The position numbers and the translations under genes were made by a program. From Candidatus Doudnabacteria bacterium (GTDB lineage Bacteria > Patescibacteriota > Doudnabacteria > UBA920): 64,000 nt of DNA. How positions within the stretch are numbered: position 1 is the stretch's first letter; the number at the start of each line of letters is the position of its first letter. Where the stretch lies: the NCBI GenBank assembly GCA_963837465.1, contig CAWINB010000004.1, positions 394,853-458,852 of the forward strand, written 5' to 3'. Positions 30,739 through 64,000 of this stretch are shown in pieces. The notes beneath the pieces were generated by a model. That model saw only the letters and a program-made list of their open reading frames with translations, ran no database searches and had not been told where the DNA came from.

Positions 30739-30743
30739 CAAGA

Positions 30744-44113: not shown

Positions 44114-45389
44114 TTAAGGGCCTGTTGCCGAATGCTTAAATTGGTAAAAAGATAAGCAAGCTGATTTTAGTCTAACCCTTTTTAGGATTAAGTTTGGTTA
44201 TCTTCGTATCAATTGTTTTGTTTGAGCGGTTTCGGAGGGAAATTTCAGGATACTTTTTCCTCTCCGGACGCGCTCCATCTCAAAGCCCCAATCTAGGGGC
44301 TTGTTTGTATTGGCAGAATGGTTATGGCTTTTTTAAGGTTATGGCAAATGGCTTCAAACGTGACCTGGAAAAATACTTTAGCCCGGCCTCTGAATTTGGC
44401 TCGTTTTCTGCATTTGGAGAAGGTGCCTTCAAAGGGCATTCTCATGGCGGATATCCAGCGATCCAAATCTTTGTTCTTGGTTTTGTTATTGTTCTTTCTG
44501 ATAGTTCCCGCGTGCAGACCGTGAGCTTTTAAAACATTATCGTTTTCTTTGCAGTCAAACAGCTTGTCGGAAAATACCATACCCTGTTTGGGGCAAATAC
44601 TGTCGGTAGTCTTGTAATCAGGTACATTAGCGGCGGTTACGGCCAGTTTGGTAATTAAACCGTATCTCATGTCCACGGCCTCGTGCCGCTTGTAGCCAAA
44701 CCAAATGCTGGTCTTGCTTTTGGCTCCCCAGCGGGCGTCTTTGTCGGTGGCGTAGTTTTTAACGTTTTTGTTGTTAAGTTTTTCCTCTCCGTCGGCTATG
44801 GCTTTGTCCCGTTCATCCCAGAGGGCGGTTTTGGTAATGATACTGGAAGCATCGATGAAGGTAAAAACATTGCCGACTAAGCCAAGTGATTCTAAATGCT
44901 TGTTAATACCGGTAAAAATATCGTAGAGTTTTTGTGCGCCAATTCTCTTTCGTAGCTTGCAAAAGTAGGTATGGTCAGGAGTTTGTTCTAGCAGGCCAAA
45001 GCCAGCAAACCAGCGGACAGCCATATTTTCCTTTACGCACTTTTCCATTTCCCGGTCCGAGTAGTCTTCCCAAAACTGGATAAGCAAAGCCAGAAAGCCT
45101 TTTTCTATGGCTATGCCGGTAGTGCCTAAATCGCTATACAAAGAACGTAAGGGAGAAACAAACTGCTCAAAGTCGATGATTTCCTTAAGTCTCCTAAATG
45201 GATGAGTGGCCTCTATTATTTTGTTAAAGATCTGTTGTTCTGTCTGCAAAAGAAACGGGCTGGTTTTATCATTGGGCTGTAACATTTTTTTATTTTCCTT
45301 AATGTTTACAGCTTAATTATATCATTTTAAAAACTTTTTTACTTGAGGAAAACTTAATATTTTTTGCCATTCGGCAACAGTCCCTTTAA
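44114..45389 (-). mobile_element. IS5-family insertion sequence with roughly 22-bp terminal inverted repeats
   Basis: Left end ttaaagggcctgttgccgaatg (44114-44134) matches the reverse complement of right end cattcggcaacagtccctttaa (45368-45389). Confidence 0.65.
44293..45285 (-). CDS. IS5-family DDE transposase
   Basis: The DDE_Tnp_1-like pattern has FIDASSIITK ... DKLFD ... and a C-terminal basic tail. Confidence 0.75.
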   Translation of the reverse strand: MLQPNDKTSPFLLQTEQQIFNKIIEATHPFRRLKEIIDFEQFVSPLRSLYSDLGTTGIAIEKGFLALLIQFWEDYSDREMEKCVKENMAVRWFAGFGLLEQTPDHTYFCKLRKRIGAQKLYDIFTGINKHLESLGLVGNVFTFIDASSIITKTALWDERDKAIADGEEKLNNKNVKNYATDKDARWGAKSKTSIWFGYKRHEAVDMRYGLITKLAVTAANVPDYKTTDSICPKQGMVFSDKLFDCKENDNVLKAHGLHAGTIRKNNNKTKNKDLDRWISAMRMPFEGTFSKCRKRAKFRGRAKVFFQVTFEAICHNLKKAITILPIQTSP

Positions 45390-45440: not shown

Positions 45441-46610
45441 ATGAAGAAGCAACACATGACGGCGAGCACGCTCGCCATTTTCGCGCTGATGGTTCTGGCC
45501 ACCATGACCGGATGCAGCAAACCCCAACCCGCGCCTGTTCAACAAAAAGCCGCGGAACAGCCCGAGCCGCCGCCGGCGCCCAAGAAGGTGTCCGTCACCT
45601 TTAAATCGTCGGAGGCCCCGTTCTATCTATCGGAGCATTACAGCGCTGGCAGAATCCAGGAGTTTAGGACGCAAAGCAATAAGTCTGACGATGTGTGGAC
45701 GGCTACCTACGACGAGATGAACCTTGGTAATAACAATCAGTACGCGACCCTGGTCCAAGACGGCAATATTGTGCTTACCAAGCGCATTCCGGCAGAGAAG
45801 TTCTCGGGCACCGAAGACAAGAGTATAGACTTAGACGACAGCGAGCTTGAGGCTCTCAGTCCTGACGGCTGGGTCGTGCGCCCGAATGTTCGCGTGCACG
45901 CGTTCAAGAGCGAATTCGCCGATACCAAGACCGTTAAAGTCGGGGGTGACGACAAGACCCTTGACGAACTCGCGAAGAGCCAGTACCCCTGGAGGATTAC
46001 CCGCTTCGGCCAAGGTTTCCAGGCCGAAGTGGATAACGATGTCCTCCTCAATGGCTTCCGTCCGGACGGAGTGCGCCTGTTCCTGCGGCGCCAAGAGGAG
46101 CTTAAGGCCGGCGACGACCTGGTCGAAGCCATTAAGGACGGATCCGTAACCGGTTTGGCCGTTGAGCAGCAGATTGGGAACTTCCATGAGTACGCTGCTC
46201 TGTTCGATTCTATGCCGGATGCCATTAAAGGTCCGGCGATCGATACGCTGGTTACCATCATGATTCCCAAAGTGACGGCCAAGGCTGACGAGCCTTCTGC
46301 TAGAAACGCTGCTGCTCGAGTCCTGCTAGATTTTACTTGGGACATGGTCAAGGCCATGCCGCCAACGATGGACTCAGCATGCAGTAACTGGCCAGATACA
46401 GTCGCAGACAGGCCGGTTCCGAACTATGGCAATCTCACCCAAAAGCAGTGCATGGAGAGGGTGGATATGCTTAAGTTCTGGGCGCGGCGCGGGCAGTTTT
46501 CATTCGAGAGGACCAAGGCCGATGTGGCCAAGGCGCTCGGTTCAGCTCCTGCTCCGGCCACCGGCGGCATTCCGAAAAAAGGTATCCCCAAGAAGGGAGC
46601 TGGTAAGTAG
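45441..46610 (+). CDS. lipoprotein, hypothetical (high-GC gene)
   Basis: A lipobox MTGCS follows a signal peptide, and the C-terminal tail is Gly/Lys-rich. Local GC is clearly above the window average. Confidence 0.5.
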   Translation: MKKQHMTASTLAIFALMVLATMTGCSKPQPAPVQQKAAEQPEPPPAPKKVSVTFKSSEAPFYLSEHYSAGRIQEFRTQSNKSDDVWTATYDEMNLGNNNQYATLVQDGNIVLTKRIPAEKFSGTEDKSIDLDDSELEALSPDGWVVRPNVRVHAFKSEFADTKTVKVGGDDKTLDELAKSQYPWRITRFGQGFQAEVDNDVLLNGFRPDGVRLFLRRQEELKAGDDLVEAIKDGSVTGLAVEQQIGNFHEYAALFDSMPDAIKGPAIDTLVTIMIPKVTAKADEPSARNAAARVLLDFTWDMVKAMPPTMDSACSNWPDTVADRPVPNYGNLTQKQCMERVDMLKFWARRGQFSFERTKADVAKALGSAPAPATGGIPKKGIPKKGAGK

Positions 46611-46776
46611 TAGTTGCTTTACCTCAAAATCCTCACTATAGGATCAGGGCGAGCAGTTTGCATCTAAATGATGTATTCTGCCCGCCCTGTTTTATTAGTT
46701 TAAATAGATATAAAGTTTTAATTATAGGAAAAAATATAATTTTCCTTTTAAATAAGGTACTAGATAATACTTATTC

Positions 46777-46805
46777 TTGACATATAGTTAGAAATAATGT
46801 ATAAT
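46777..46805 (+). promoter_or_regulatory. perfect-consensus sigma70 promoter (TTGACA-N17-TATAAT) with a long structured leader
   Basis: The promoter reads ttgaca tatagttagaaataatg tataat. Three hairpins follow before the ATG at 47082, including gtatcccttgc...gcaagggatac. Confidence 0.5.
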
Positions 46806-47081
46806 AATAAGTCAAAATTAAATTAGTTCTTTATCTTCTGGTTTCATTTTTGCTCTTAAAGAAAAAGCAAAAATGAGTCCAGAATTTCTGGCTCAATTGT
46901 TCTTTAATAAATATCCAGGAGGATAAACGTTACTATTTTAAATTTAAGTATCCCTTGCGAATAAAGCATCCATAAAATGAATGTTTGGATTCTTTCTTAG
47001 CAAGGGATACTCTCAAGTTCCCAAGCGCCCGGCACGTAGTGCCGGTATCCCAGTCAATACACTGTACAACGGAGAAAAAAG

Positions 47082-48584
47082 ATGCGTCAGAATTTTTTCG
47101 TCACTTTACTCGCCGCGATGCTCATTCTCACGGTGGGAAACGTAAACGCCCAACACAAGTTCGTCCCGACAACACCCGCTCCGGCCGTCGCACAGGAAAA
47201 ACCGGTGGCCGCGGAGCCCCCGGCGGAAACTCCGGAACAGGCCGCACCGGCAATAACTGACGACCATATTAAAGAGATCGCAGCAGCGGCGGTAGCAGAT
47301 GCTATTGCCAAACTGCCGGCCCCGCCAAGCAAGACCGCTATCGTGACGGAGGTTGTGAAGCAAATGCCATCCGCCCCCAACTATGACTTTTTCTTCTATA
47401 TCCAGGGTGGGATTGACCTCGTTCTGGCGATCGTTGGGGTTGTGTTTCTGTTGTTGCGCCGTAAGTCCAAGCGAAGAGTGATCTCTGGGGGAGCCGCGGC
47501 AGCCATTTTGTTGGCTTGCTTGATTGCTCTTTCCACGGTTCCTGTTCATGCAGCCGGTCCTACTGCAACTTGCACGCCCTATGTAACCAAGGACGGCACC
47601 CCCGTCGATATTACGTGCAAGGTTAACGGCATTACCAGCGCCGGCACGGTTACGTTTAGTGATACTAATGTGACCGCGACTGACGTCCACCTGACAGGCA
47701 ACACCTTGAAGTTCAAGGCAACGGCGGGCACTGCGGCGACGGCTCCCAACAGCCCCGACATGGCGGTTGATACTACCGCCGTCGGTTCTCCACTTGCGGT
47801 ACTGGACAATAACAGCGCCGCTCTCGCAGATATGGTCGTCAACATCGTCAAAGGATCCCCCGCTCCCACCACGGGCAGCGGCGCTTCCTCGGGAGGCGAC
47901 GACATCCGTTGGCACGCATTGTTTAACAGCGTCTGCGGAGTTGATAAGGCCCATGCCCGCTGCGGAAGGGAATTCGGACCCGCCATTACGGGGGACGAAT
48001 TGTTTGCGAAGCTGAAGGCGGCTCGCAACCAAGCGGAGGAAAACCTGGTGATGGGTATGTTCTCCAATGCTGTGGAGTTTAACTCTACCGACCGGGTTTT
48101 CCAAGACGATCGCTTCAAGGACGCCGCAAAGAAGACCGCGGATGCTCTCGCCGCCCTGAATGGGGCTGTTCAGAGCATCCAAGGCGGCGTAACCGAAACC
48201 CGCGTTCGCGCAATCGCTCGCGAGGAAGTTCAACCGGCCACCACGGCGGCTAATGAGGCTAAGGGCATCGCTGGTCAGGCGCTTGGCGAGGCAACTCGCG
48301 CCAATCTTCGGTTGACCAACATCGAACCCGTCATCAGTGCGAACGTCGAAGCCACGCAAGCGGCTCTCGAACTTGGTGACCATGGCGGTTCCTTCCTCGG
48401 CTTCGGCGGCGGCCCCAAACGGGATGTCAAGGTCGAAGCGAGGGCGGCTGGGTTTAAGCTCTTCTGTGCCCAGACGCTAGCCAAAACCGGCAAACCGGGC
48501 GAAGGTTGCCCGGTTCCGCAGTCCCAAGCTTCGGCCCAAAACGGCACCGCTGGTACAGTGGTGCAGATGCAGCCGAAGAAATAG
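47082..48584 (+). CDS. secreted protein with internal TM/anchor segment, hypothetical (high-GC gene)
   Basis: It has a signal peptide (MRQNFFVTLLAAMLILTVGNVNAQ) and a second hydrophobic segment followed by RRKSKRR. Confidence 0.5.
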   Translation: MRQNFFVTLLAAMLILTVGNVNAQHKFVPTTPAPAVAQEKPVAAEPPAETPEQAAPAITDDHIKEIAAAAVADAIAKLPAPPSKTAIVTEVVKQMPSAPNYDFFFYIQGGIDLVLAIVGVVFLLLRRKSKRRVISGGAAAAILLACLIALSTVPVHAAGPTATCTPYVTKDGTPVDITCKVNGITSAGTVTFSDTNVTATDVHLTGNTLKFKATAGTAATAPNSPDMAVDTTAVGSPLAVLDNNSAALADMVVNIVKGSPAPTTGSGASSGGDDIRWHALFNSVCGVDKAHARCGREFGPAITGDELFAKLKAARNQAEENLVMGMFSNAVEFNSTDRVFQDDRFKDAAKKTADALAALNGAVQSIQGGVTETRVRAIAREEVQPATTAANEAKGIAGQALGEATRANLRLTNIEPVISANVEATQAALELGDHGGSFLGFGGGPKRDVKVEARAAGFKLFCAQTLAKTGKPGEGCPVPQSQASAQNGTAGTVVQMQPKK

Positions 48585-48912
48585 TAACGTAATAAAACTC
48601 TAAGGACAGGCCTCTGCCAACAAACCTACCTTAGAGAGAACACTTAAAGGGGCGCCGTGCTCAGCTTATGCTGACTCCGCGCCCCCTTCACTTTTATATC
48701 ATTAAAATTTGTTAATATGGACAATGGTAAAAAGCCGTTGCGAAGTTGGAGAATTGTGATAAAATGAAAAGTCAAACTTGCCGCGTGGTTAAAAAAGCCA
48801 AATAGTTAGCTTTTTTAATTGCCCGGTAATATTGGGCAGGCTTAAAATATTTCAGGAGGATAAAATTTAATGATGCGTAATTGTCATACCGACAAGCAAA
48901 GTATGGGTTATT

Positions 48913-50103
48913 TTGTTTGTGGGTGTGACGATTATGAAAAATACTATACTACGAATTGCGTTGTTTTGTGCTGTGTTCGCCGCGGCTTCGGTCGCGTCGG
49001 CACAGCAAATGTTTTTTGAAACTCCCGAAGCCTGCACTTCGGCCGCTCCGGGAACATTTTCCGTTTACCAGCCCAAGTACGATACCAAATTGGGGTGGTG
49101 GAAGGAGATGAAATCCTTGGGCAAGGCTGAGCTCGTGGAAAACCACGGCAAGGTCTACTGTGCCGATGAGTTTACGGTTGTCGGCTGGAGAATTATTCAA
49201 TGGCCGGAAAACAACCCGTACTACACTTCGGACGGTAAGATTGCCGATGGTCGGTGTGGCAACGAAGTTCGCCACATTTGGGAAGTTCCTCCGCCTGCAC
49301 CGCCGCCCCAGTTGCCTCCACCGACCGGGAATATTCACGTAGTGAAAAAGACCTTTGATCCCGATTCGGTGCATATGATAATACCTACGGGCGCCGCGCA
49401 GGTGTTCGCGGGTACTACTCAAATACCGTTGAACCGGAATGATAACGGTGATGCCGAAGGCCTTATCGCTCTCCCCGAGGGCGATTACGACATAAGTGAA
49501 CAGTTTGACCCACAAGTCTGGACTCAGATTTGGTTGTCAAACAAGCGTGTTCATGTAGTTGCCGGTCAAACAGTTGAAGTCGAAATCAAGAACCAGCAAC
49601 TGCGCCCTCCGCCTCAACCGGTTGCCCCTCCCCATGTTTGCCCTATTTGCGGGGAAGTCGTCGCTTCGGCGGACTTGTCCCAGGTAGTGCTTACCGCGGA
49701 TCTTCAGCTTTGGGTTCGCGTGAAGTGGGAGGCAGTTCGGGTCATTGGAGTTTTTTGGCAGAATCGAGAGGTTTTTTCCGGACCCAACGGGACTCTCACT
49801 GTCTCCAACTTTAAGGGTGCTGGAATCTATGAGATGGAAGTACACGGAGAAGACAACGAAGGGCATATTCTGATTTGTGCTTTCAACGTTGTAACCGTGC
49901 TGCCCCCACCTCCACCGGCTCCCCATAAGGTAAAGAAAAACCACAAAAAGTTAGTGGTCGGCATAGTAATTGCAGTAGGTGTGGGGGTTTGCATTGCCTC
50001 TGCTGTTGAGGGGTGGCCTGTCCCATGCGGATGGGTGGTGAAGCTTTTTCATAAAGCCGCAGCCGCGCCAATTCAAAAGGCTCCCATTCCTGTAACCCGG
50101 TAG
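48913..50103 (+). CDS. secreted protein with C-terminal TM anchor and Pro-rich linkers, hypothetical (high-GC gene)
   Basis: A signal peptide follows MKNTIL (the probable start is near 48934). PPPAPPPQLPPP tracts are present, and the C-terminus has LVVGIVIAVGVGVCIASAV. Confidence 0.45.
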   Translation: MFVGVTIMKNTILRIALFCAVFAAASVASAQQMFFETPEACTSAAPGTFSVYQPKYDTKLGWWKEMKSLGKAELVENHGKVYCADEFTVVGWRIIQWPENNPYYTSDGKIADGRCGNEVRHIWEVPPPAPPPQLPPPTGNIHVVKKTFDPDSVHMIIPTGAAQVFAGTTQIPLNRNDNGDAEGLIALPEGDYDISEQFDPQVWTQIWLSNKRVHVVAGQTVEVEIKNQQLRPPPQPVAPPHVCPICGEVVASADLSQVVLTADLQLWVRVKWEAVRVIGVFWQNREVFSGPNGTLTVSNFKGAGIYEMEVHGEDNEGHILICAFNVVTVLPPPPPAPHKVKKNHKKLVVGIVIAVGVGVCIASAVEGWPVPCGWVVKLFHKAAAAPIQKAPIPVTR

Positions 50104-50372
50104 TTTTTCAGCCCCGGGCGCCACGGGCAAGCATCATATAAATGGCGCGGTAATCTCTTAAAAAGGCAGTTTGTTGGGAATTTTATTCCTACAACTGCCT
50201 TTTGTTTTTGGTTATAAGGTTAATTTTTTTGTTGCGCTTGACAGAAATACAGTTAATAGGTATAATATAAAGTCATTTTTTATTATTATCAACAAATAAT
50301 ATTTTTTGTGTTATAATTAACCAAGTTTATAAAAGCATTTAGTTTAATCAAATCTAATAATATAGCTAAATT

Positions 50373-51890
50373 ATGGAAAATCCATTTTCAAAAATTGCTA
50401 AAGCATATAAGGATAGTGATTTTGCTTTACGCGGGCAGACCAAAAGAGAAACCAAGGCTTTAGCCAGGGAAGAGGAGTTGACTGACGAGGCTTTGGTAGA
50501 CAAAATCCTCCAAGACCGGGGTTTTGGTAAATTTTTAGTGGACAGCAATCCAAAATACCAGAGCATGAACTTTGACAAGAAAGATTTTAAGGATATTCGG
50601 GAAAAGTATTACGCCTATACGGAATCCAAAAAGGTAGCCACGGAACTTAGGACTGTCTACAGCCAAGAGATAATGCAGGATTTGGATATTGAGCTAACAC
50701 CGGCTGAGCAAGATCAGGTATTTGAGAGCATGGATGTGGCACTAAGCAGCAGACTGCAAAAAGACGGCAGGAATATTGAAATTTCCAGGCTTAAAAATAA
50801 GCTGGAGGAATATAATAAATTAAAAGAACGGATTGAGCAACTTGAAAGCAAATTCCAGCAGGCGGGGGTCAACGAAGCTGTTATTGAGGGAATGTCCAGC
50901 GAAAAGGGAATGGATAAGCTAAGGGATCGCGAGAAGTTGGCAAAAACGGCTAAAAAGATAAAGGTGCCGTTTATGAAAGGCCGTAACCGCGGCATACAGG
51001 AAGCGCGTCAGGATTTAGTGGGTAATTTTGAAATTGAGAGAGAAAATATTAAAGCCCAATTCCAGGAGGTCAAAGCCGGCAGAAAAGAAGCGGAAGGACT
51101 GCGGCGACAACTCGACGAATTGAGGCAATATTTTTTGGTGCAGATTAAGATAGCGGACTCGGTCATAGACCGGGCAAGATTCCGGGCCAACGAAGTCCTT
51201 AAGGCTCGCGTAGAAACTGCCACCATCGAATACCAAAGACATGACCCTGCTTCAACCAAAAAAATGCAGGAGTTAGCTGACCTGCAGGCTTATTCAGAAC
51301 TTATGGACTCCACAGCCAGAAGCAAAACCGATGAAGATTATATGAATGATTTAGACGCGAAGCATCATTTTGGTGGGCGCAGGATTACGACTGCGGAGGC
51401 AGACCAGTTGGAAGCCTGGAGAGACCAGGAAGAGACCCGTGCAGCTTCAACTTTAGACACTACCGATTCAGCCAGTAAATTATTGGGCAAAATGCGTGAA
51501 GGCCGGAAGAAAAAAGGCAAAGGCGGCATTGATTATACAGCTGGCGGCCAGGTTGTTGACTTTTATGACCTTTATGACTTGGACACTGATACAGAGTTGG
51601 TAAAGAATTTGGATAGTATGCTGGAGAAGGAACTGGAGACTGTGATGGAACGAGCGGTTTTCACTTCCCGTACTATTCAGCAGTTTGAAGGCGCCTTGGA
51701 TCCGGTTTTAAAACGCTGGGAAGCCGGTCAGTATAATACCCGTGGCAAGGTCAGGAATTTTATCGCGGACAAGTTAGTTGCTCTTTGCAATACTCCTTCT
51801 ATGGAACCGGTTATGAAGGTGCAGGTTAAAGCTTTGCTGTATAAGCGCGGCATTTTTAAAGGCTTAACGCGCGTAGCGATACCTAAATAA
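50373..51890 (+). CDS. hypothetical coiled-coil protein, first gene of a four-gene operon
   Basis: It is charged and helical (505 aa) with no catalytic motif recognised. Confidence 0.4.
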   Translation: MENPFSKIAKAYKDSDFALRGQTKRETKALAREEELTDEALVDKILQDRGFGKFLVDSNPKYQSMNFDKKDFKDIREKYYAYTESKKVATELRTVYSQEIMQDLDIELTPAEQDQVFESMDVALSSRLQKDGRNIEISRLKNKLEEYNKLKERIEQLESKFQQAGVNEAVIEGMSSEKGMDKLRDREKLAKTAKKIKVPFMKGRNRGIQEARQDLVGNFEIERENIKAQFQEVKAGRKEAEGLRRQLDELRQYFLVQIKIADSVIDRARFRANEVLKARVETATIEYQRHDPASTKKMQELADLQAYSELMDSTARSKTDEDYMNDLDAKHHFGGRRITTAEADQLEAWRDQEETRAASTLDTTDSASKLLGKMREGRKKKGKGGIDYTAGGQVVDFYDLYDLDTDTELVKNLDSMLEKELETVMERAVFTSRTIQQFEGALDPVLKRWEAGQYNTRGKVRNFIADKLVALCNTPSMEPVMKVQVKALLYKRGIFKGLTRVAIPK

Positions 51891-51923
51891 TACCGATTTA
51901 AATTATAAAATAAAATAATATAT

Positions 51924-52214
51924 ATGAGCGTAGACCTATCAAAACTAGAACAGCTAGTTGAAGAAGAAAATTTTGAGCAAGCACAAAGTATGTTGGTGGA
52001 TTATTTTAGCCAACCCTTAACTCCGGAAGAACGCGGGCAGGCTTATATTGAAGTCGCCTCCGTTTATCTGGATATTGCCAATTATTTTAACAAGCAAAAG
52101 GCCGAGCTTCTTGAGGCCGGAATAAAAGCTTTGGCCGAACTGGACAAGCAGAGAAAGCAATTGGATGACTTGATAGATCTGGACAAAGTTCGCAAAGCCA
52201 TTAAAGACTCCTAA
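51924..52214 (+). CDS. small acidic helical protein, hypothetical
   Basis: It is 96 aa and lies 34 nt after the previous gene. Confidence 0.3.
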   Translation: MSVDLSKLEQLVEEENFEQAQSMLVDYFSQPLTPEERGQAYIEVASVYLDIANYFNKQKAELLEAGIKALAELDKQRKQLDDLIDLDKVRKAIKDS

Positions 52215-52230
52215 GAGCCTGTTTAAATTT

Positions 52231-52548
52231 ATGGATTCATTTGATATTCCAATGCCACCAGAAATCCGGCAGTTTTTGGAAGATATGCTCAAAGACGCGG
52301 ATGCTATGCCGGAGGCCGAGGAGCTGAAAGAAATGATGCTGAGCGATTTATACACCCGCTTGCAGGCCAAGCTGTTTTTACTTTTAGCCGACAAGTTGGA
52401 AGAAGACCAACTGGAAACTTACAGCAGGCTATCTACTTTGGATCCAGCCCAGGGAAACGCTTATTTAGATGATGTCCTGCCAAACTATAGGCAATTGTTT
52501 TTGCAAACTCTGGCGGAATTCAGGGGTGTGTTTTTAGGCAAAAAATAA
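52231..52548 (+). CDS. small acidic helical protein, hypothetical
   Basis: It is 105 aa and lies 17 nt after the previous gene. Confidence 0.3.
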   Translation: MDSFDIPMPPEIRQFLEDMLKDADAMPEAEELKEMMLSDLYTRLQAKLFLLLADKLEEDQLETYSRLSTLDPAQGNAYLDDVLPNYRQLFLQTLAEFRGVFLGKK

Positions 52549-52561
52549 GTTAAAACTTTTT

Positions 52562-55500
52562 ATGCCCAGGGAATATCGTCAAGGCACAGTTCTTGACCAA
52601 ATAGACGAGGAAAACAAAAACCGCGATACCGACATTGGCCATATTGAGCAGTCCCACCAGCCGGTTTTTCACAAGTCACAAAAATCCCGCGATGAGATTA
52701 AAATTAAACGCAAGCTGGATCTCGATAAGCCCGAAGTCCAGACTTTTAAGATTACCGCCGCGGCTGTGGACGAAATAATAGATGCGGCCGCTCAGAGAGT
52801 GGGCGAGCAAAAGGCTCAGGAATATTTGGATAAAGCGGGTTGGATAAAGAAATCTTTTGTGCGTCCCAGTGAAAAGGCACTGATAGAAAAGTTTAAAGAA
52901 GAAGTCAAAGCCGAGATTCTGGCCAACCGCAATTTAATGGCCAGCATTGAGGGCAGGGCGCTGCTGAATTCAAAAGTTGAAAAATTGCACGCCGATTCTG
53001 ACAGGGCGACACAGGCTATTTTTGAGGTATTGGTGGAAAGAGCTCATAATTTAGAGCGTAAATCTAATGAAGAATTTTGGGGACTTAGTTCAGGTCCGGA
53101 AGATAAAAAATCAAAACAAAAGAATGAAAAATACGAAACCAGGGAAAAAATCGCGCATACTGCGTCTATGGATGCCGCTGCCGCGGACTTGATCGCCAAA
53201 TGGGCTTTTGAGGAAATTCCTGACCGCAACGCTTTTGACGCCTTAGCTGAAGAGAAAATTTTTCGCAAATTAACCACCAAAGCCAATCTTGGCAAAGCGG
53301 AAACTTTTGCTTCCAATCTGTTTTTTGTCGCCGAGCAATATAAAGAGTCAATAGAAAAAACTTTAAAGAAAGCCGCTAAAGAATTTTCCCCGGCCGAAAA
53401 AACTAAAGTCCGTAATTATTTAAGGGGATCGGTTAGGTTAGATATCAATATGGCCCTGAGTAAGGCGGATATGGCTCGCCGCAAGCCCGAGGGTGTTATG
53501 CGCGCGGTGGAAGCAGTGGTTGATTTTACCCAAATGCCTTATTTGGCAAAACTAGGTAAATTTGCCGGTACTGGATTTGGCAAATTTTTGTCTAAAATTC
53601 CTGGTGGGAATTTTATGAGTAAAACAATTGACCGTCTATGGGGCTTAAGCGTTGGTAACCCTTTAGTTTATGCTTGGGTGGGTAACAGGTTAGCTTACGC
53701 GGCGGCTTCCGGAGTTGGTATTAAAACCGCAATGCTGGCCGGCACAGCTTTAGCCGTGGGTTTGGGGCCCGGCACTATTATGGCTATTGGCGCGGCTCTG
53801 GGCGGCGGCAGTTATTTTGCTTTGAGAAAAGCCGCCGAAATGAGCCGTGATAGGCGCAGGCGTGAAGACAAAGCCATTTTGGGAACAGGCCCTAAAGAAA
53901 GTCTGCAACCTGTAGATACCAGGGAAATTGGCCTGAAGCTTATTTTGCAATTGACTGAAAAAAAGGAGCCATTAACAGAAGAGGAAAAACAAAAAATTGG
54001 CCAATGGGCGGCGGCTTTGCGTTTGCATAATGTCCATAATGTTAATATTTTAGGAGTATCCAGGGAAGAAGGAGAAAGTAATAAAAGTAATATTGTGGCA
54101 GTGGATAATTTGCAAGAGGCTATTTTAAATTTGTTGGAAAAAAAACATGCGGAATTTCAGCATTACGACAGTAGCGCAAATAATTGGGACGCGCAAGCCC
54201 GCGATTTTAGCCGTTATATAGGTGACGCGGAAAGGAAGTTGCTGGAGAAAATCAAACTGGTCGATAAAGAAAAAGCCGCGGAAATTGTGCGGGGTGCTTT
54301 GGTTGCGGGCGTGGTGGGTGGCGCTATCGCGGGCGTCGGTTCTATATTAAGTCCCGAAGTCCTGAAGTTACTTAAAGAGGGGGTAAATGTCGCTTCCCAC
54401 AATCTTGGCGGACATGATGTCTTTGATACCAACTATAATACTTATGCCGAAGCTTTGTGGCATAAGGGGGCTGAAAAGCTTGGCTGGGTTCCTGCTGCCC
54501 CCACTCATTTTAATGGTGAAATGGTGCCAAATGATTTTGCTATTTTTAATGGTCACACTCAAATTAAATTACCGGTAGGGTATGGTAGTTTTCATTTACA
54601 TAATAACAGCGGTGATTTTATTGTCATTACAGATCCGGCACAGCATGTTGTGGGAAACCCCATTCAAGTTGGTGCTGACGGTATAATAAACCCGGCCTCC
54701 TGGAACCATTTTACCCATGACTTAGGGTGGCAAGTTAATCATGCAGACGCAGCCGCGGCCGCTCACGGCGGCATCCCTGGCCATTCCCGCAGCTTTACGG
54801 ACTGGCTGCATGACTTAAGGTCTCATTTGCCCAACGGAGTTAAGATAGAAGAAGCTCATTTTAAGGGAAATTATGACAACTTAACCCCAAATTCAGATTT
54901 AAATGAGCTTAATTTCCATATTAATGTGGCAGGGAATGGTGATGTCCACTGGGATGTGCAGAACTTAATGCAGTATGGCTCATTTCATCAAGTTGGAGGA
55001 ACTTTTATTCCGGGCGCTGCTCCCTATCAGCCTGATATGACGGCATTGCTTCATTCCGGCGACCTTAAATTTGTAATTATTCCCGATGCGGCGCATCCGC
55101 ATGACGCCATATTTTTAAATATGGACTCAACAGGACACGCTATTGTTCCCAAAGATATAGCGCAGTGCCTGTTAAATTCCGCCACCGGCCACCCCAAAGA
55201 AGGTGTGCTTATTGGCTCCGCTCATATTTTAGACAGACCCGGCGGTGGTAAAGATATGATAATGATCAACGCAATTAAGGGTCATGGCGAGGCTGTAAAT
55301 TATGACATGTCTTCGGCCGCTACCCCTACGGGCACTACAGCAGGTCCGGCAATTTGGGATGCCCGCCCTCCGATTGTATACACCAGCGAAGCCCCGTACG
55401 GTCCTGCCGGTTATCGCCGCCAGACGGACGAGGATATAACTACCGCACGGGAAAAACGGGAAACAAAAGAATTGGAACGGCAGTGGAAAGAGCAACTTGC

Positions 55501-56959
55501 TAAAATGTCTCCGGAAGAAAAAATGCTTATGGCGCAGAATGATATGCTGGCTGTTTTAAGCGGATCTGACAAAACGCTGACCGCGATTATTCCGGCTTTT
55601 GATAAAACATCCGCTAGGTACCGATTAGATGAAGCACAGCAGGAAAAATTACTTGTAGATATCTGTAAGGCTAAGGGTATGACTGATGAAGAAGTAAAGA
55701 CCGCGTTGGCTCAACAAGTTCAACAGAACGCCGCGCCTGTAGCAGTTGCTGCGGGCGGGGGTACCCCTGAGGCGCAAGCATCCTCTACTCCTGCGGCCCA
55801 GTCGTTTTCCACTAAAAAAACAGCATTGCTCAATAGTTTGCTGGCAAGAGAAATGGAAGCAAGCAGGAAAGCCGCGTTTCCCGAAGCTGCTCCTGACAGG
55901 CGGTTCCTCAGCGAACTTAATAAAAGAGAATCCAATCGTGCTCCGCATTTGGAATTCAGCGCGGACGATGGTTTATTGAAAAAGAAAACGGATTTAGATT
56001 TTATAAACTCCCTGGCCGAGTCTGTCCATGACTTTTTGGTCGCGGAAGGTCTGGACGCAAATGTTTACAGCCTGGCATCTTATAAAATTAAAATTACGGA
56101 AACCCCTCCTTATGGTTGGAATGAAAAGGATAAGAGCTTGTTGTCTGTGGGAACAACTGAATCTCCAAATAAAATAGCTTTGGATATTTTGGAAAAAATT
56201 AAAACTCCGGATTCGCCCCTTGAATATAGATATAGGGACCTGACGGAAGTTAATAATTCAGCAGATAATAAAGAGCCGACCTTAAAATTTAGCTATGATC
56301 CAGGTGTGTTGATTGGCATTGGTCAAAGTGCCGTTAACAATTATGGCAAACGTTTGCATAGCGAACTACGAAGCCAGATCGGCACTGACCCAAGGTTTGA
56401 AGACGCTCTGTTAAGAATTAATTTTATAAACCCTCGGGATCCAATGCCCGATGTTCCGGATATTGATGCTCATGGGTATACTATTATGACGTTGCCTTTT
56501 GGCGACAATGTTAAAAGAGATGCAGGGATAATTTTAAGGGAAATGAAACGATTGGCACCCGAGACATTGCCGCCGGTTGATAGAGTGTTTTTGAGGGATA
56601 TTAATAATTTGCCCGGAAACCAGAATCCCAATATAGCATTTGATATGCCGGATTCAATAATCAGAGAAATGGGATCACCGGAAGCCAAGATTTATGTGAC
56701 AAGAATAGCGGCAAAAATGGAAGCGAAGCTCAATCAACTGAAAGCGGCTAATGGAGGAAGGGATAGGGCCTTTTTTGAATCTTTGGTTATTTCAGTTGGG
56801 GTTAGCAGGAATGCGGCTGATTTGCACGGCACTCTTGGAGCTGACGGTAGTTTTCAGTTCACTTTTCCCGCTTACAAAGGAACGGTTAATAGGGAGCCGG
56901 ATAATAGAATAGAGGCCAGAATTAATCAGCAGTTTGAAGAAATAAGGAATGCGCCCTAA
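52562..56959 (+). CDS. giant protein (1465 aa) with Gly-rich hydrophobic segments, function unknown
   Basis: It starts 14 nt after the previous gene. It contains putative membrane-inserting Gly/Ala-rich segments (GTALAVGLGPGTIMAIGAALGGGSYFAL; LVAGVVGGAIAGVGSIL). No known catalytic motif was recognised by eye. Confidence 0.5.
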   Translation: MPREYRQGTVLDQIDEENKNRDTDIGHIEQSHQPVFHKSQKSRDEIKIKRKLDLDKPEVQTFKITAAAVDEIIDAAAQRVGEQKAQEYLDKAGWIKKSFVRPSEKALIEKFKEEVKAEILANRNLMASIEGRALLNSKVEKLHADSDRATQAIFEVLVERAHNLERKSNEEFWGLSSGPEDKKSKQKNEKYETREKIAHTASMDAAAADLIAKWAFEEIPDRNAFDALAEEKIFRKLTTKANLGKAETFASNLFFVAEQYKESIEKTLKKAAKEFSPAEKTKVRNYLRGSVRLDINMALSKADMARRKPEGVMRAVEAVVDFTQMPYLAKLGKFAGTGFGKFLSKIPGGNFMSKTIDRLWGLSVGNPLVYAWVGNRLAYAAASGVGIKTAMLAGTALAVGLGPGTIMAIGAALGGGSYFALRKAAEMSRDRRRREDKAILGTGPKESLQPVDTREIGLKLILQLTEKKEPLTEEEKQKIGQWAAALRLHNVHNVNILGVSREEGESNKSNIVAVDNLQEAILNLLEKKHAEFQHYDSSANNWDAQARDFSRYIGDAERKLLEKIKLVDKEKAAEIVRGALVAGVVGGAIAGVGSILSPEVLKLLKEGVNVASHNLGGHDVFDTNYNTYAEALWHKGAEKLGWVPAAPTHFNGEMVPNDFAIFNGHTQIKLPVGYGSFHLHNNSGDFIVITDPAQHVVGNPIQVGADGIINPASWNHFTHDLGWQVNHADAAAAAHGGIPGHSRSFTDWLHDLRSHLPNGVKIEEAHFKGNYDNLTPNSDLNELNFHINVAGNGDVHWDVQNLMQYGSFHQVGGTFIPGAAPYQPDMTALLHSGDLKFVIIPDAAHPHDAIFLNMDSTGHAIVPKDIAQCLLNSATGHPKEGVLIGSAHILDRPGGGKDMIMINAIKGHGEAVNYDMSSAATPTGTTAGPAIWDARPPIVYTSEAPYGPAGYRRQTDEDITTAREKRETKELERQWKEQLAKMSPEEKMLMAQNDMLAVLSGSDKTLTAIIPAFDKTSARYRLDEAQQEKLLVDICKAKGMTDEEVKTALAQQVQQNAAPVAVAAGGGTPEAQASSTPAAQSFSTKKTALLNSLLAREMEASRKAAFPEAAPDRRFLSELNKRESNRAPHLEFSADDGLLKKKTDLDFINSLAESVHDFLVAEGLDANVYSLASYKIKITETPPYGWNEKDKSLLSVGTTESPNKIALDILEKIKTPDSPLEYRYRDLTEVNNSADNKEPTLKFSYDPGVLIGIGQSAVNNYGKRLHSELRSQIGTDPRFEDALLRINFINPRDPMPDVPDIDAHGYTIMTLPFGDNVKRDAGIILREMKRLAPETLPPVDRVFLRDINNLPGNQNPNIAFDMPDSIIREMGSPEAKIYVTRIAAKMEAKLNQLKAANGGRDRAFFESLVISVGVSRNAADLHGTLGADGSFQFTFPAYKGTVNREPDNRIEARINQQFEEIRNAP

Positions 56960-57014: not shown

Positions 57015-58289
57015 TTATGGTGACTTAGCCGGAGTACTTTGGGTAGTTGTCGGTGTCACAACGGTGGTCGGCTGGATTTGCGCTTGGAGCAAACTTTCCA
57101 CAATCGCGATAATGCTAAAGGACAGGATGGCGACTACAAGGCCCAGGATTGCCCAGGTGATGGTTTTTTTGGCTTTAGTGATAGCTTCTTCGCTGCCGGA
57201 GCCCACAATCATTTGAAAACCTCCCACTATAATAAACACCACGGCCAATACCCCAAGTACGGAAAGCAAACCCTGCGCCACCAGCAAAAACGCGTGCACC
57301 AAATCACTTTCGGGCAAGGGGTCGTAAAGGCATGATGTTGGATCGGTGCAGGGGGTGGTGGAATTTGGTGTGGCGGCGTTAGCACCGCTTGCGGAAGTTA
57401 CTGGCGCCACGCACACACCTTGGGAAACGTTGCAAGTATAGCCAACTTCATCGGCGGCGTTGCAATCTGGGTCACTAGTGCAAGCCCTGCATAAACCGGC
57501 ATTAGTGCAAAGCTGGGAAGCGCATTGGCTAAAGTCAGTACAAGTCGCGCCATTAGGCAAATTTGTTGTTGCGGCTGTTGGCGCAACGCATACGCCTTGG
57601 GAAACGTTGCAAGTATAGCCAACTTCATCAGAGGCGTTACAATCAGCGTTACTTGTGCAAGCCCGGCAAAGGCCTGCATTAGTACAAAGTTGAGAGGCGC
57701 ATTGGCTGAAGTCGGTGCACCCTCCTCCATTTGGGACGTTGCTCGTTGCGGCCTGTGTGAGAGTAATGCCAACTGGAGATGATTCAGTTAAAACTGGCCA
57801 ATTATTTGAGCCATCAGTGACTTTAACCATAGCCGCTACCTGCAAGCTGCTAGGTATGTTCCCATTGTTCCAAGAAGAAGATGGAGTGAAGGTGTTGTTT
57901 GGCAATGAGAATGTCTGGGAAGTTTGAGCCGGTTGTCCGCTCTGGGCATTATAGGTTAATGGGAAAACAATATCAGATAGCAATCTATTGCCAGTAGTTT
58001 TATCATAAACAGTTACATAGACGTTAAGCGCGTTTGTATTGCTGTTCGGAACAGGACAAGTGCCTGTTAAGCTGCCGTTGTCTGTTAGTAGGTTATTCAC
58101 TGTTACAGAACCGGAAATAGTAAATGGCGTATTATTAGCTCCAGATTTTGGATTTACGTCAAAGCTTATTTGCGCGGCGCAACTGGCGGAAGAGGCTGTT
58201 GCAATATTTGGAGTAAGCGAAACCAAGCCAAAAATCTCCACCATCAAAAAGCTTAAGGCAAAGACTATTTTTACTATTTTTTGTTTCAT
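57015..58289 (-). CDS. secreted Cys-rich protein with duplicated module and C-terminal two-helix hydrophobic anchor
   Basis: It has a signal peptide. The module TDFSQCASQLCTNAGLCRACTS..DCNA.DEVGYTCNVSQGVCVAP is duplicated. The C-terminal LSVLGVLAVVFIIVGGFQMIV...ILGLVVAILSFSIIAIV resembles a pilin-like double helix. Confidence 0.45.
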   Translation of the reverse strand: MKQKIVKIVFALSFLMVEIFGLVSLTPNIATASSASCAAQISFDVNPKSGANNTPFTISGSVTVNNLLTDNGSLTGTCPVPNSNTNALNVYVTVYDKTTGNRLLSDIVFPLTYNAQSGQPAQTSQTFSLPNNTFTPSSSWNNGNIPSSLQVAAMVKVTDGSNNWPVLTESSPVGITLTQAATSNVPNGGGCTDFSQCASQLCTNAGLCRACTSNADCNASDEVGYTCNVSQGVCVAPTAATTNLPNGATCTDFSQCASQLCTNAGLCRACTSDPDCNAADEVGYTCNVSQGVCVAPVTSASGANAATPNSTTPCTDPTSCLYDPLPESDLVHAFLLVAQGLLSVLGVLAVVFIIVGGFQMIVGSGSEEAITKAKKTITWAILGLVVAILSFSIIAIVESLLQAQIQPTTVVTPTTTQSTPAKSP

Positions 58290-58607: not shown

Positions 58608-59828
58608 ATGAAAAAAACTATGGAAGTCAAACCAAAAATTGAAGCTTTTGCCAGGATTAAGGTTTTGGGCATTGGAGGGTCGGGGACTAACGCGGTTAAC
58701 CGTATGACCCAGCTGGGCATTAAGGGTGTGGAGTTTATTGCTATTAATACCGACGCGCAGGCTTTGCATAATAACCAGGCCGACCGGAAGGTCCATATTG
58801 GCAAAAGCGCCACCAAGGGCCTTGGCAGCGGTATGAATCCCGATTTGGGCAGGCAGGCGGCCGAAGAAAGCGTGGAAGAACTGGAAGAGGTTATAGACAA
58901 CGCGGATATGGTGTTTATTACCTGCGGTTTAGGAGGCGGCACGGGTAGCGGCGCGGCTCCTATTGTGGCTGAGCTGGCTAAAAACAAAGGCATCTTAACC
59001 GTGGGCGTAGTTACCAAGCCATTTACCTTTGAAGGCAGCAAGCGCAAGGAAGTGGCCGAAACCGCTTACGATAATTTAAAGGATAAAGTAGATGCCATTA
59101 TCTCCATCCACAACGACCGCATCCTCCAAATCATCGACAAAAAAACTTCACTCATCGAAGCTTTTAAAACTGTGGATGAAGTCCTGCGCCAGGGCATTGC
59201 GGGTATTTCCGACCTGATTACCACCCATGGTATTGTTAACGCGGATTTCGCGGACGTAAAAAGCATAATGCAGGACGCGGGCACGGCGCTTATGGGTATT
59301 GGCCGGGCCACGGGCGAAAATCGCGCGGCGGAAGCGGCTAAAGCGGCCATTAATTCTCCTTTGCTGGAAATGACCGTAGACGGAGCCAAAGGCGTGCTGT
59401 TTAATATTACCGGCGGCAGCAGTTTGGGAATGTTTGAAATAGACGAGGCAGCCAAGGTTATTACCAGGAGCATAGACCCGGATGCCAAGGTTAAGTTTGG
59501 CGCGGTTATAGACGAAAATATGGGCGACGAAGTGCGCATTACGGTTATTGCCACGGGTTTTGATGAAAGCAGCAAGCGTACCACCACGGCCCAAATGGTT
59601 TTAAACGAACAACCTAAAACTGTCAGGATGCCCGAACCTAAAATTGTTAACCCGGTTATACCGCCGGTAGAAATCCGCAAGCCGATGTTTAATCCCAAAC
59701 CGGCTCCGGTACCGGAAAATATAGATTTTACCCCGAACGCCGTAAACATCGGCAAGCCGGAACCAAGCGAACCGGTCAACGAAGACGATCTGGAAATCCC
59801 GGCGTTTATTAGAAAGAAGATGAAATAG
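58608..59828 (+). CDS. ftsZ: cell division GTPase FtsZ
   Basis: The tubulin signature GGGTGSG is present, with N-terminal IKVLGIGGSGTNAVNRM and a conserved C-terminal DDLEIPAFIRKK peptide. Confidence 0.9.
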   Translation: MKKTMEVKPKIEAFARIKVLGIGGSGTNAVNRMTQLGIKGVEFIAINTDAQALHNNQADRKVHIGKSATKGLGSGMNPDLGRQAAEESVEELEEVIDNADMVFITCGLGGGTGSGAAPIVAELAKNKGILTVGVVTKPFTFEGSKRKEVAETAYDNLKDKVDAIISIHNDRILQIIDKKTSLIEAFKTVDEVLRQGIAGISDLITTHGIVNADFADVKSIMQDAGTALMGIGRATGENRAAEAAKAAINSPLLEMTVDGAKGVLFNITGGSSLGMFEIDEAAKVITRSIDPDAKVKFGAVIDENMGDEVRITVIATGFDESSKRTTTAQMVLNEQPKTVRMPEPKIVNPVIPPVEIRKPMFNPKPAPVPENIDFTPNAVNIGKPEPSEPVNEDDLEIPAFIRKKMK

Positions 59829-62188: not shown

Positions 62189-64000
62189 ATGCAACCCAAA
62201 GTCAATCTCCAGACCAGAACAACCAACGCGCTGTCCGAATTAGGCGAAAAAATATTTTTGGACCGTTACGCGGTTAAGGATATTAAACGCGAAACTTTGG
62301 CCGTGGGCGATACCGTGGTGGTTTTGGTGAATCCCAAAACCGGCCAGCGCGAGATTGGCGTTATTGAAAATATTGACTTTGCCAGCAAAGATGTCAGCGT
62401 GCGTATGCGCGACGGCCAGCTGGAACACCGGACCATTGAGCACGTGGACAAGCCGCTGGAACTGGTGCCGGAGCAGATGTTCGACCGCATTGCCAGGCAT
62501 ATTGCCAGCGTGGAAAAAACCGCTTCCAAGCAGGACGAGTGGCAGGAAAAATTCCGTAAATTAATGGATGACTGGAAGTACGTGCCCGCCGGCCGGATTT
62601 TTACCGGAGCGGGCACCGGACAGAATTTAACTTTTTATAACTGTTATGTTATTCCGCATCCCAAAGATTCCGCGGCGGTATTTTTGAAACCCTGAGCCAA
62701 ATGGCGGAAATTATGTCCAGAGGCGGCGGCGTTGGCATTAATGTCTCATCGCTCCGCCCCCGCTACGCTTACGTTAAAGGTGTAAACGGTCGCTCCTCCG
62801 GCGCGGTCTCCTGGGCATCGCTCTACAGTTTTGTTACAGGTTTAATCGAGCAGGGTGGATCCAGGCGCGGCGCTTTGATGTTAATTTTAAACTGCTGGCA
62901 TCCGGACGTTTTGGATTTTATCAATTCCAAAAAAGAAGCCGGAAAAATCACCAACGCCAACATCAGCGTCGGCATTACCGACGACTTTATGGACGCGGTG
63001 AAAAACGACAAGCCCTGGGACCTGATTTTTCCCGACACTTCGGACCCGCTTTACAAAGACAAATGGGACGGCAATATCAAGCGCTGGCAGGAAACCGGCG
63101 GTAAAATCATAAAGCACAAAACCGTGCGCGCCACCGATATTTGGGACAACATTATTACTTCGGCCTGGCAGTCGGCCGAACCCGGCATGTATTTTATTGA
63201 CCGCGCCAATTACTATTCCAATTCCTGGTACTTTGCCGATTTGCCCTGCACCAACCCCTGCGGCGAACAGCCTCTGCCGGCCTGGGGCGTGTGCAATTTG
63301 GGCCACGTTAATTTGGCCAGGCACATCAACAAAGAAACCGGAGAGGTTTTATGGAACGATTTAAAGCAAACCGTGCAGTACGCCGTGCGTTTTCAGGATA
63401 ATGTTATAGACGCCACGCCCTATTTTTTTGACGAGAACAAAAACCAGCAAATGAGTGAGCGCAGGGTCGGCATGGGCACTATAGGTTTGGCGGAAATGAT
63501 GATTTACAGCGGCGTAAAATACGGCAGTTCCGAGTCCGTGGATTTTATAGACAAACTTTACCAGTTTATAGCGGTTACGGCTTACGAAACTTCCATAGAG
63601 CTGGCGCGCGAAAAAGGCGCGTTCCCGAAATTTGACGCTGAAAAGTTTTTACAGTCGGGTTATATGAAGCAGATGCCCGCCTACATTCGCAACCTGACCG
63701 CCAAGTACGGCATCCGCAACGTCACCATTTTAACCCAGGCGCCAACGGGCACTGTGGGCACTATGGTTGGCACCAGCACCGGCATTGAGCCGTTTTTTTC
63801 CTGGACTTATTTCAGGAAGTCGCGTTTGGGCGTGCACGAGGAAAAAATCAAACTGGCGCAGGATTGGGAGGCCTTGCATCCGGGCCAGGATTTGCCAGAT
63901 TATTTTGCCACGGCCATGGAACTGATGCCGGAAGAACACGTGCGGGTGCAGGCCGCTGTCCAGCGCTGGACAGACTCGGCTATTTCCAAAACCTGCAACG
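62189..64000 (+). CDS. nrdJ: class II (adenosylcobalamin-dependent) ribonucleotide reductase, with apparent +1 frameshift at a T5 run near 62680; continues past the window end
   Basis: The upstream frame ends ...CYVIPHPKDSAAVFLKP*. Another frame continues FETLSQMAEIMSRGGGVGINVSSLRPR...C..NPCGEQPL... (RNR active-site regions). One extra T would join the two frames. Confidence 0.75.

Follow-up and report, generated by a model that had tools for sequence, protein, structure and literature searches.

A DUF5663 gene paired with the gene of a giant protein upstream of ftsZ in Candidatus Doudnabacteria: a conserved two-gene module of Patescibacteria

Small proteins encoded beside large exported ones are known from several secretion systems. 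The VirE1 gene lies just upstream of the VirE2 gene, and the translocators of type III and type VI secretion systems (T3SS and T6SS) insert a hydrophobic hairpin in the target membrane after a small chaperone has shielded the hydrophobic segments before export, a shielding reportedly treated by Krampen et al. in 2018. Substrates of VirB/D4 type IV secretion systems (T4SS) bear positively charged C-terminal signals that are read by VirD4, moderately hydrophobic transmembrane (TM) effectors evade the signal recognition particle (SRP), and mis-targeting is preventable by chaperones (reviewed in PMC12981334). A T4SS is widespread in Patescibacteria; it has lost its role in conjugation, is essential to epibiotic growth in the Saccharimonadia, the one genetically tractable lineage, and its substrates are undescribed (PMC12102498). 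The stretch of DNA analyzed here, 64,000 nucleotides (nt) of Candidatus Doudnabacteria contig CAWINB010000004.1 (the window), contains upstream of ftsZ a cluster of four genes, A to D, of which gene C encodes a small acidic protein of the Pfam family DUF5663 and gene D a giant protein of 1465 amino acids (aa). Comparative genomics indicates that these two genes constitute a conserved two-gene module confined, as far as seen, to Patescibacteria.

Much of bacterial diversity belongs to the Patescibacteria (candidate phyla radiation, CPR), apparent epibionts of other microbes whose host-contacting molecules are almost unknown. To our knowledge, DUF5663 has no described function or partner, and its obligate pairing with a giant protein is unreported; neither the family nor the pairing was mentioned in the literature searched. 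This orphan Pfam family gains here a partner and a context, and a core domain of about 550 aa in the giant protein is newly defined.

The DUF5663 gene and the giant gene as a conserved pair

The cluster comprises four plus-strand open reading frames (ORFs): gene A (50373-51890, 505 aa), gene B (51924-52214, 96 aa), gene C (52231-52548, 105 aa) and gene D (52562-56959, 1465 aa). A preliminary description of this DNA had placed them at the same coordinates, and the tight spacing that it reported is real, with exact gaps of 33 nt (A-B), 16 nt (B-C) and 13 nt (C-D), each one nucleotide less than the 34, 17 and 14 nt given there. The same description found no known domain in the cluster, which holds for proteins A, B and D but not for protein C, which matches DUF5663 (PF18908, E = 1.4e-5) with 26.0 bits against a gathering cut-off of 23.7, over profile positions 11-81 of 84.

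A word-indexed search for protein homologues was nearly blind to these proteins, returning two matches each for D and C and, its candidate list being saturated, none for the core alignment. The only exact copy of D in the database is on an 868-kb contig, and a single homologue of D was retrieved (P0002, 43% identity), encoded on a 7.2-kb metagenome contig (L001) that carries A-B-C-D in the same order (32%, 45%, 56% and 43% identity, respectively). Since homologues occur in the same order on this unrelated contig, A, B, C and D are real genes and not chance ORFs. The 10-kb flanks of ftsZ from 80 related genomes, searched iteratively with hidden Markov models (HMMs) over their ORFs, yielded 13 D-family proteins (1331-1659 aa). 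A C-family gene immediately precedes every D-family gene for which upstream DNA is present, and nearly all D-family genes end just before ftsZ. The C-family HMM links C with 29 other adjacent small proteins, 18 of them local and 11 from elsewhere, and neighbouring small genes in other loci bear precomputed DUF5663 annotation too.

When 1.84 billion cluster representatives were searched exhaustively by profile with residues 1-1120 of D, 89 of them matched at E < 1e-3, nearly all of 1200-2250 aa, and a refined profile of 19 sequences covers almost the whole core of about 550 aa in essentially all 89. The window itself conforms to the definition of the module, D matching the core profile end to end and C ending 13 nt before it. 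Adjacency of a DUF5663 gene to a giant gene was found in all 13 loci of the Doudnabacteria lineage, in four further close relatives and in all seven distant members (about 24 loci), with gaps of 3-24 nt between the genes. In the distant members the abutting gene of about 100 aa lies upstream in six (one of them cut by the contig end) and downstream in one, and the C-family HMM recognizes each of the seven small proteins (E from 1e-10 to 5e-38). Thus the small acidic partner beside a giant protein, which the preliminary description had pointed out, holds for C and D in all of these loci, and absence or lack of linkage in all related genomes, which it had named as its own refutation, is not what was found. 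It is the pairing that is conserved and not the location, since the chromosomal contexts differ (thrS/rplA, an ABC transporter, or ftsZ).

Within the lineage of the window, C-D lies directly upstream of ftsZ (58608-59828, plus strand) in at least 17 loci; the FtsZ of the window is 84-86% identical to that of many Candidatus Doudnabacteria metagenome-assembled genomes. In further close relatives (P0010, P0006, P0005) C-D-ftsZ is preceded by other cassettes, such as genes of 265 aa and 104 aa, the latter acidic (L093), or a gene of 531 aa and a second DUF5663-like gene (L091). In five loci without D, a protein of about 1000 aa ("E") precedes the DUF5663 gene. E possesses Gly/Ala-zipper segments and a Lys-rich tail (+6), and is homologous to the domain between the helices of D (residues 429-567; hhalign probability 93.7%, E = 1.8e-7). 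The gene content of the related loci indicates that the site upstream of ftsZ holds alternative cassettes of a large protein and a small acidic helical protein (C+D, E+C, and F690+B as described below), two of which, A+B and C+D, are carried by the window locus.

The cluster is accordingly two pairs, A+B and C+D, of which C+D is the conserved unit. The four-gene arrangement that the preliminary description proposed to look for elsewhere does recur, on the metagenome contig L001, but it is not conserved as a unit, the order A-B-C-D having been seen only twice. Gene A was found only in the window and, at the equivalent position, in L001. Protein A is soluble and K/E-rich, without a TM segment, and has a cationic C-terminal tail (net +7 over the last 25 aa); it has no match in Pfam, NCBIfam, PHROG, PADLOC or PDB sequences. 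Homology links residues 29-170 of A with the N-terminal part of a family of about 690 aa (F690; hhalign probability 95%, E = 2.6e-8), members of which are encoded directly before B homologues in L016, L017 and L018. Homologues of B (L001, L016, L017 and L018, E from 1e-36 to 1e-40) each lie right after an A-like large gene. Protein B has no match in NCBIfam, PHROG or PADLOC, and only sub-threshold noise in Pfam. A+B is a second pair, analogous to C+D in joining a large protein with a small acidic one, placed before C-D. No relationship between B and C was detected by hhalign, and in a Rosetta-stone test the profiles of A, B and F690 matched no N-terminal extension of any superfamily member.

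Both small proteins are acidic, as first described, with isoelectric points of 4.47 (B) and 4.30 (C), and neither has a TM segment, a signal peptide or a hydrophobic segment. At 96-105 aa, and encoded 13-16 nt from the next gene, they agree with the general picture of a secretion chaperone, a small, acidic, cytoplasmic protein whose gene adjoins that of its substrate. No similarity of C or B to known chaperone families was found in Pfam, NCBIfam or PDB sequences, and the C family has no sequence relative among solved structures.

Some genomes have two DUF5663 genes at the locus (L026, 3376-7765 and 9470-9775; L091, 2977-4960 and 7656-12425), one of which goes with D while the second stands alone or after another large protein; this suggests duplication or turnover of cassettes. 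In two relatives an MNT/HepT toxin-antitoxin pair lies between the giant gene and ftsZ (L090, 5385-5985; L093, 5476-6079).

The D proteins have diverged extremely. Syntenic D proteins are 12-30% identical, N-domain included, where the FtsZ proteins are 76-86% identical, and similarity of D does not track similarity of FtsZ, a pattern that suggests diversifying selection and/or exchange of cassettes. Alignments of D and A scanned against genome and metagenome contigs gave no matches.

Architecture of the giant protein and its superfamily

The domains of D were delimited with alignments and two AlphaFold models, one of the core (mean predicted local distance difference test score, pLDDT, 69.8; predicted template modelling score, pTM, 0.68) and one of residues 600-1465 (pLDDT 75.6). 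A variable N-terminus (residues 1-54) is followed by an alpha/beta N-domain (residues 55-335, 52724-53566, plus strand as for all domains of D; mostly pLDDT 70-90). No other part of the superfamily is shared as widely, the profile search having matched this region in most of the 89 representatives. The nearly invariant residues of the N-domain are A77, R101, L125, R222, F225, A257, D294 and D303. An ADP-ribosyltransferase-like R/S/E reading of such residues was rejected, the candidate "STS" residues lying in a predicted helix. Next come a hydrophobic Gly/Ala-zipper block with a GNP motif and a GPG turn, followed by a basic stretch with a conserved RDRRRRED (residues 360-435, 53639-53866; low model confidence), and then a helical domain ending in a second Gly-zipper helix at 572-598 (residues 446-598, 53897-54355; pLDDT 78-91).

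Beyond these lies a beta-rich domain with 26 His residues (residues 601-956, 54362-55429), in which a metal site is unlikely because the His positions are not conserved. It ends in a motif, RPP...P.G-[YW]-R-[RK]-x-x-[DE] (RPP...P.G-Y-R-R-x-x-D in D, residues 936-956, 55367-55429), that is conserved superfamily-wide at the junction of the beta-rich domain with the variable linker and head; P937, R952 and R953 vary little or not at all, and the motif could be a processing or recognition site. An Ala-rich linker (residues 957-1108) leads to a lineage-specific C-terminal head, in which an alpha/beta unit of about 115 aa is repeated in tandem to give three homologous copies (residues 1109-1465, 55886-56956; pLDDT 80-95), with hhalign probabilities of 77-94% for repeat against repeat.

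None of the four proteins gave a housekeeping domain, in agreement with the preliminary description. D has no match in Pfam, NCBIfam, PHROG, PADLOC or sequence and profile searches of the PDB, and Foldseek, run with both models on the PDB and with the ectodomain model on the viral structures of BFVD, returned nothing at E < 1e-3 with a meaningful TM-score; the core of about 550 aa has no detectable relative among solved structures. For the four proteins, Pfam gave no WXG100, LXG or Lap (DUF3130/DUF3958) domain at E up to 0.1 and no toxin, Rhs, CdiA or colicin match, and none matched the anti-phage defence models of PADLOC at E up to 0.01.

The heads of the superfamily are polymorphic, the repeats of D giving way to other domains in distant members. 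Among 28 members, Pfam identified as C-terminal domains PP2C (four members), glycosyltransferases of families 2 and 9 (GT2 and GT9) and Ser/Thr kinase (Pkinase), and DHH-like and HExxH motifs were recognized by eye in others. Of 75 members, 72 lack any hydrophobic segment beyond the core, so the PP2C, kinase and glycosyltransferase heads share a compartment with the beta-rich domain; if the N-terminus is inside, that compartment would be outside the producer cell.

The Gly/Ala-rich hydrophobic stretches that the preliminary description noticed are present at about 360-416 and 572-598. It took them for segments that could insert into membranes; they are indeed hydrophobic, but as ordinary TM helices they do not qualify, being marginal Gly-zippers by their apparent free energy of insertion (dGapp, a simplified Hessa sum). 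This is +3.3 kcal/mol for the first block and +2.2 kcal/mol for the second segment, the best in D, and over 75 full-length members the median is +2.6 kcal/mol, with none below +1.0. By the same simplified sum, neither D nor any of the 75 members attains the value of about 0 or lower expected of an integral membrane protein inserted by SRP and Sec. Of eight reference proteins from the window, seven contain segments with values of +0.7 or less, the lowest being -3.7; the other, PGA_cap, has no hydrophobic segment. Membrane proteins of the window used as reference reach -0.3 to -3.7.

A further trait of the superfamily is a cationic tail. The mean charge of the last 25 aa is +3.5, versus +0.6 in 810 other proteins of the same loci, and tails of +5 or more occur in 44% of the family versus 6% of the other proteins (Mann-Whitney p = 1.3e-13).

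Possible roles of the module and its setting in the window

Besides the cationic tails of the family, two kinds of neighbour link the module circumstantially with secretion. Convergent with gene D, and separated from it by 55 nt, is a minus-strand gene (57015-58289) for a secreted Cys-rich protein of 424 aa with a C-terminal VirB2-like T4SS_pilin domain (PF18895, E = 5.2e-8, above the cut-off); VirB2-like pilin genes also adjoin homologues of D in L084, L009 and L007. In addition, a coupling ATPase of the VirD4/TrwB type (L089, 1-1512) is encoded directly upstream of one distant DUF5663-giant pair. The 424-aa protein, unusually large for a "pilin", has a signal peptide, two near-identical Cys-rich repeats (GGGCTDFSQCASQLCTNAGLCRACTS..DCNA.DEVGYTCNVSQGVCVAP) and a two-helix pilin end. 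Homologous pilin C-terminal domains are encoded upstream of ftsZ in about 12 relatives, with or without D.

The reading that we favour, with a probability of roughly 0.35, is that D, perhaps a substrate of type IV secretion, is a host-directed effector or translocator assisted by a chaperone or adaptor. It draws together the weak glycine-zipper helices, the constant small acidic partner, the cofactor-needing heads placed outside the producer cytoplasm, the cationic tails and the T4SS neighbours, which in combination agree with known properties of chaperoned TM effectors in contact-dependent secretion, above all by VirB/D4-type T4SS (PMC12981334). Produced by an epibiotic bacterium, the giant protein would act on the host in a contact-dependent manner. 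Its glycine-zipper helices, being only marginally hydrophobic, would avoid co-translational insertion into the membrane of the producer itself, and the DUF5663 protein would serve the conserved core in the cytoplasm as a dedicated chaperone or adaptor. Their complex would be passed to an export machine, most plausibly the T4SS of Patescibacteria via a VirD4-type coupling protein, and the glycine-zipper helices would then insert post-translationally in the membrane of the target and so position or deliver the variable C-terminal head. Selection for host specificity or in an arms race may account for the extreme, non-clock-like divergence.

Several observations weigh against this reading. No homology of the four proteins to a known effector, chaperone or secretion component was found, and a substrate of 1.2-2.2 kaa (thousand amino acids) is large for a T4SS. 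Pilin genes near ftsZ occur also in relatives without D, which makes their adjacency anecdotal, and VirB2-like arrays are common in Patescibacteria (PMC12102498); the adjacency of a coupling protein was seen in one locus only, and no virB4, virB6 or virD4 was found among the scanned ORFs of the window, which comprised most of those of at least 120 aa. The dGapp values are simple position-independent sums over 19 residues, and the helix at 572-598, with a Kyte-Doolittle value of 1.97, is rather hydrophobic; YidC or Sec could still insert it as an ordinary anchor. Finally, the tail of D in the window is not cationic (net -1), and those of its closest relatives have charges of +1, +2 and -1.

The effector-chaperone reading would fit a T4SS that has lost conjugation and is essential in epibiosis (PMC12102498). 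The DUF5663-giant module is a concrete candidate class of host-interaction effectors at a fixed chromosomal hot spot. A bolder and distinctly less probable version is that the DUF5663-giant pairs, together with the A+B and E+C cassettes of the same hypervariable locus, supply the substrates so far missing for the repurposed T4SS of Patescibacteria: chaperoned, self-inserting glycine-zipper proteins that enter the host membrane at the contact site and there form a feeding conduit or deliver host-reprogramming heads (PP2C, kinase, glycosyltransferase).

The strongest alternative, almost as probable though itself tentative, is that D stays with its producer as a resident envelope protein with its N-terminus inside and its C-terminus outside, anchored by the hairpin and the helix at 572-598, that the N-domain and the helical domain are cytoplasmic, and that the beta-rich domain and the head serve as a surface adhesin or host-recognition device, with DUF5663 as a cytoplasmic regulatory or assembly subunit on the N-domain and with divergence arising from host-range selection. 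Such a topology is consistent with the positive-inside pattern (K-rich before the hydrophobic block, RDRRRRED after it), with the beta-rich character of the region beyond the TM segment TM3, and with the greatest variability lying in the beta-rich and C-terminal regions; the noncationic tail of D in the window is in its favour, and large adhesin candidates have been proposed in genomes of the class ABY1 (PMC11809585). It would, however, place PP2C, Ser/Thr kinase, GT2 and GT9 heads outside the cell, where there is no ATP or nucleotide-sugar, with no return TM segment in the 72 of 75 members mentioned above. Moreover, all of the hydrophobic segments are marginal (dGapp above +1), unlike the resident anchors of the same genome, no adhesin-type domain (Ig, FN3, FhaB) was found by Pfam or Foldseek, and the family-wide cationic tails are left unexplained.

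The three remaining alternatives are disfavoured because each is contradicted by at least one direct test. It is unlikely that D is a contact-dependent polymorphic toxin against competitors, acting by a pore-forming core and/or an enzymatic head, with the small acidic protein as its immunity factor. The gene pair is tightly linked, a conserved N-terminal part is joined to variable C-terminal domains, and Gly-zipper hairpins are generally known from pore-forming colicin-type toxins; but DUF5663 does not co-vary with the head (PP2C, GT2, repeats or none), and in about 23 of 24 loci its gene is the upstream one, not the downstream one as expected of an immunity gene. Immunity, one of the analogies drawn in the preliminary description, is an unlikely role of the small protein given a single DUF5663 family with differing heads, usually encoded upstream. 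Furthermore, the immunity protein of a pore-former is normally a membrane protein, whereas DUF5663 is soluble; PP2C, glycosyltransferase and kinase domains are atypical of toxins; toxin-type matches are absent from the Pfam and PADLOC results; and the window has a single copy, with no orphan cassettes.

Slightly less probable again is that the four genes are cargo of a mobile genomic island, acquired together by horizontal transfer. The preliminary description had put the cluster inside an island, and the stretch of about 19 kb between ftsA (38587-39834) and ftsZ does include an insertion sequence transposase (44293-45285), toxin-antitoxin fragments and a block of 51-55% GC (45.4-50.1 kb), while the failure of D similarity to follow FtsZ phylogeny suggests exchange at the locus. 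The claim does not survive comparison with the relatives, for throughout the lineage C-D keeps its place upstream of ftsZ, and what looks foreign is the adjacent segment of three genes; the four genes have a GC content of 42-47%, like the window mean of 46%, no match in phage or plasmid collections, and no recombinase or repeats specifically flanking them. Least probable is a lineage-specific divisome or cell-shape scaffold of the dcw (division and cell wall) cluster, since, although C-D sits between ftsA and ftsZ and immediately upstream of the latter in the 17 or more loci noted, ftsA directly abuts ftsZ with no such genes between them in the relatives L010, L024 and L029-L045, other relatives hold E+C or F690+B there, distant members adjoin thrS, rplA or transporter genes, and D evolves far faster than FtsZ.

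The interval between ftsA and ftsZ is a variable region, the two genes lying about 19 kb apart here and adjacent in those more distant relatives. Its compositionally foreign part is the block at 45.4-50.1 kb, which consists of three consecutive hypothetical genes for secreted or lipoprotein-like proteins (45441-50103; 389, 500 and 396 aa) right after the DDE transposase gene; the proteins have signal peptides, Pro/Ala-rich linkers and C-terminal anchors, and the 396-aa protein has partial homologues in L011, L012 and L028. Just downstream of ftsA, the matches of short ORFs (40449-41533) to AbiEii (132 aa) and DUF4143 (126 aa) are confined to the C-terminal part of each; these ORFs appear to be what is left of decayed toxin-antitoxin or ATPase genes.

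The cluster is insulated from this block by a terminator-like hairpin with a U-run (50161-50209, plus strand), which closes the upstream gene (48913-50103). The hairpin folds with -21 kcal/mol (z-score -5.55; none of 200 shuffles folds equally well), and is missing from the list of a simple terminator scan because of bulges in its stem. Two sigma-70-type promoters are predicted on the plus strand downstream of it by consensus match, one TTGACA-17 nt-TATAAT (50238-50266, 12 of 12 positions) and the other with an extended -10 element (50289-50317, 10 of 12). No Shine-Dalgarno sequence is recognizable before A, B, C or D (50340-50372, 51891-51923, 52215-52230 and 52549-52561, respectively), and the leaders of the four genes are short and AT-rich.

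Elsewhere in the window, tRNA-Val(CAC) is immediately followed by a minus-strand gene for a large serine recombinase (Resolvase, Recombinase and Zn ribbon domains; 30482-32126), which may mark the boundary of an integrated element separate from A-D. The large subunit of ribonucleotide reductase is represented by an N-terminal ORF of 168 aa (62189-62695), compared with 881-908 aa in L090 and L091. Possibly something such as an intervening element splits this gene, the remainder lying in an ORF that runs beyond the end of the window. Other genes of the window include gyrA, topA and hisS and, typical of Patescibacteria, T4SS_pilin (PF18895), DUF5715 and DUF5663.

Comparison with described systems

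Among large proteins of Patescibacteria, the FhaB-type exoproteins of Patescibacterium danicum (class ABY1), of more than 5000 aa, contain FhaB and DUF2341 domains and have been proposed to interact with the host (PMC11809585). D resembles them in being large and in coming from the same bacterial class, but does not belong to their family, as it has no FhaB or DUF2341 domain, a different architecture and a dedicated small partner.

Polymorphic toxins (CdiA/CdiI, Rhs, LXG-Lap-immunity, colicins) share with D a conserved N-terminal part, swappable C-termini, a linked small gene and a hypervariable locus, and the pore-forming colicins also have glycine-rich hydrophobic hairpins. Unlike theirs, the heads of the D family are signalling and glycosylation enzymes rather than nucleases, deaminases or pore-formers; the small partner is constant, soluble and usually encoded upstream; and LXG, WXG, Rhs, filamentous-haemagglutinin and colicin domains are lacking.

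The T3SS translocators (IpaB/SipB/YopB, with IpgC/SycD) and the TM effectors of T6SS (with Eag/DUF1795) present the same arrangement as the locus described here, a large protein with a hydrophobic hairpin and an adjacent gene for a small chaperone. We know of no T3SS or T6SS in Patescibacteria. There is no signal of the tetratricopeptide repeat fold of IpgC/SycD or of the Eag fold, Pfam giving for B nothing above noise, and the alpha/beta N-domain of D and its polymorphic enzymatic heads are without counterpart in these translocators and effectors.

The TM effectors of T4SS with their chaperones (VirE1-VirE2 of Agrobacterium; IcmS/IcmW/LvgA of Legionella) share several features with the module and differ from it in others. 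C and D have no sequence or fold similarity to VirE1/VirE2 or IcmS/IcmW, and the D family, at 1.2-2.2 kaa, is much larger than the proteins of those systems. In contrast to Agrobacterium and Legionella, the producer is a monoderm-type epibiont, and the target would be another bacterium. Similar to the substrates read by VirD4, the D family has cationic C-terminal tails, although D of the window does not; similar to the effectors that evade SRP, it is of only moderate hydrophobicity; and its genes have a T4SS pilin gene as neighbour and, in one case, a coupling-protein gene. As in those systems, C-D places the gene of a small, acidic, helical cytoplasmic protein beside that of a large one.

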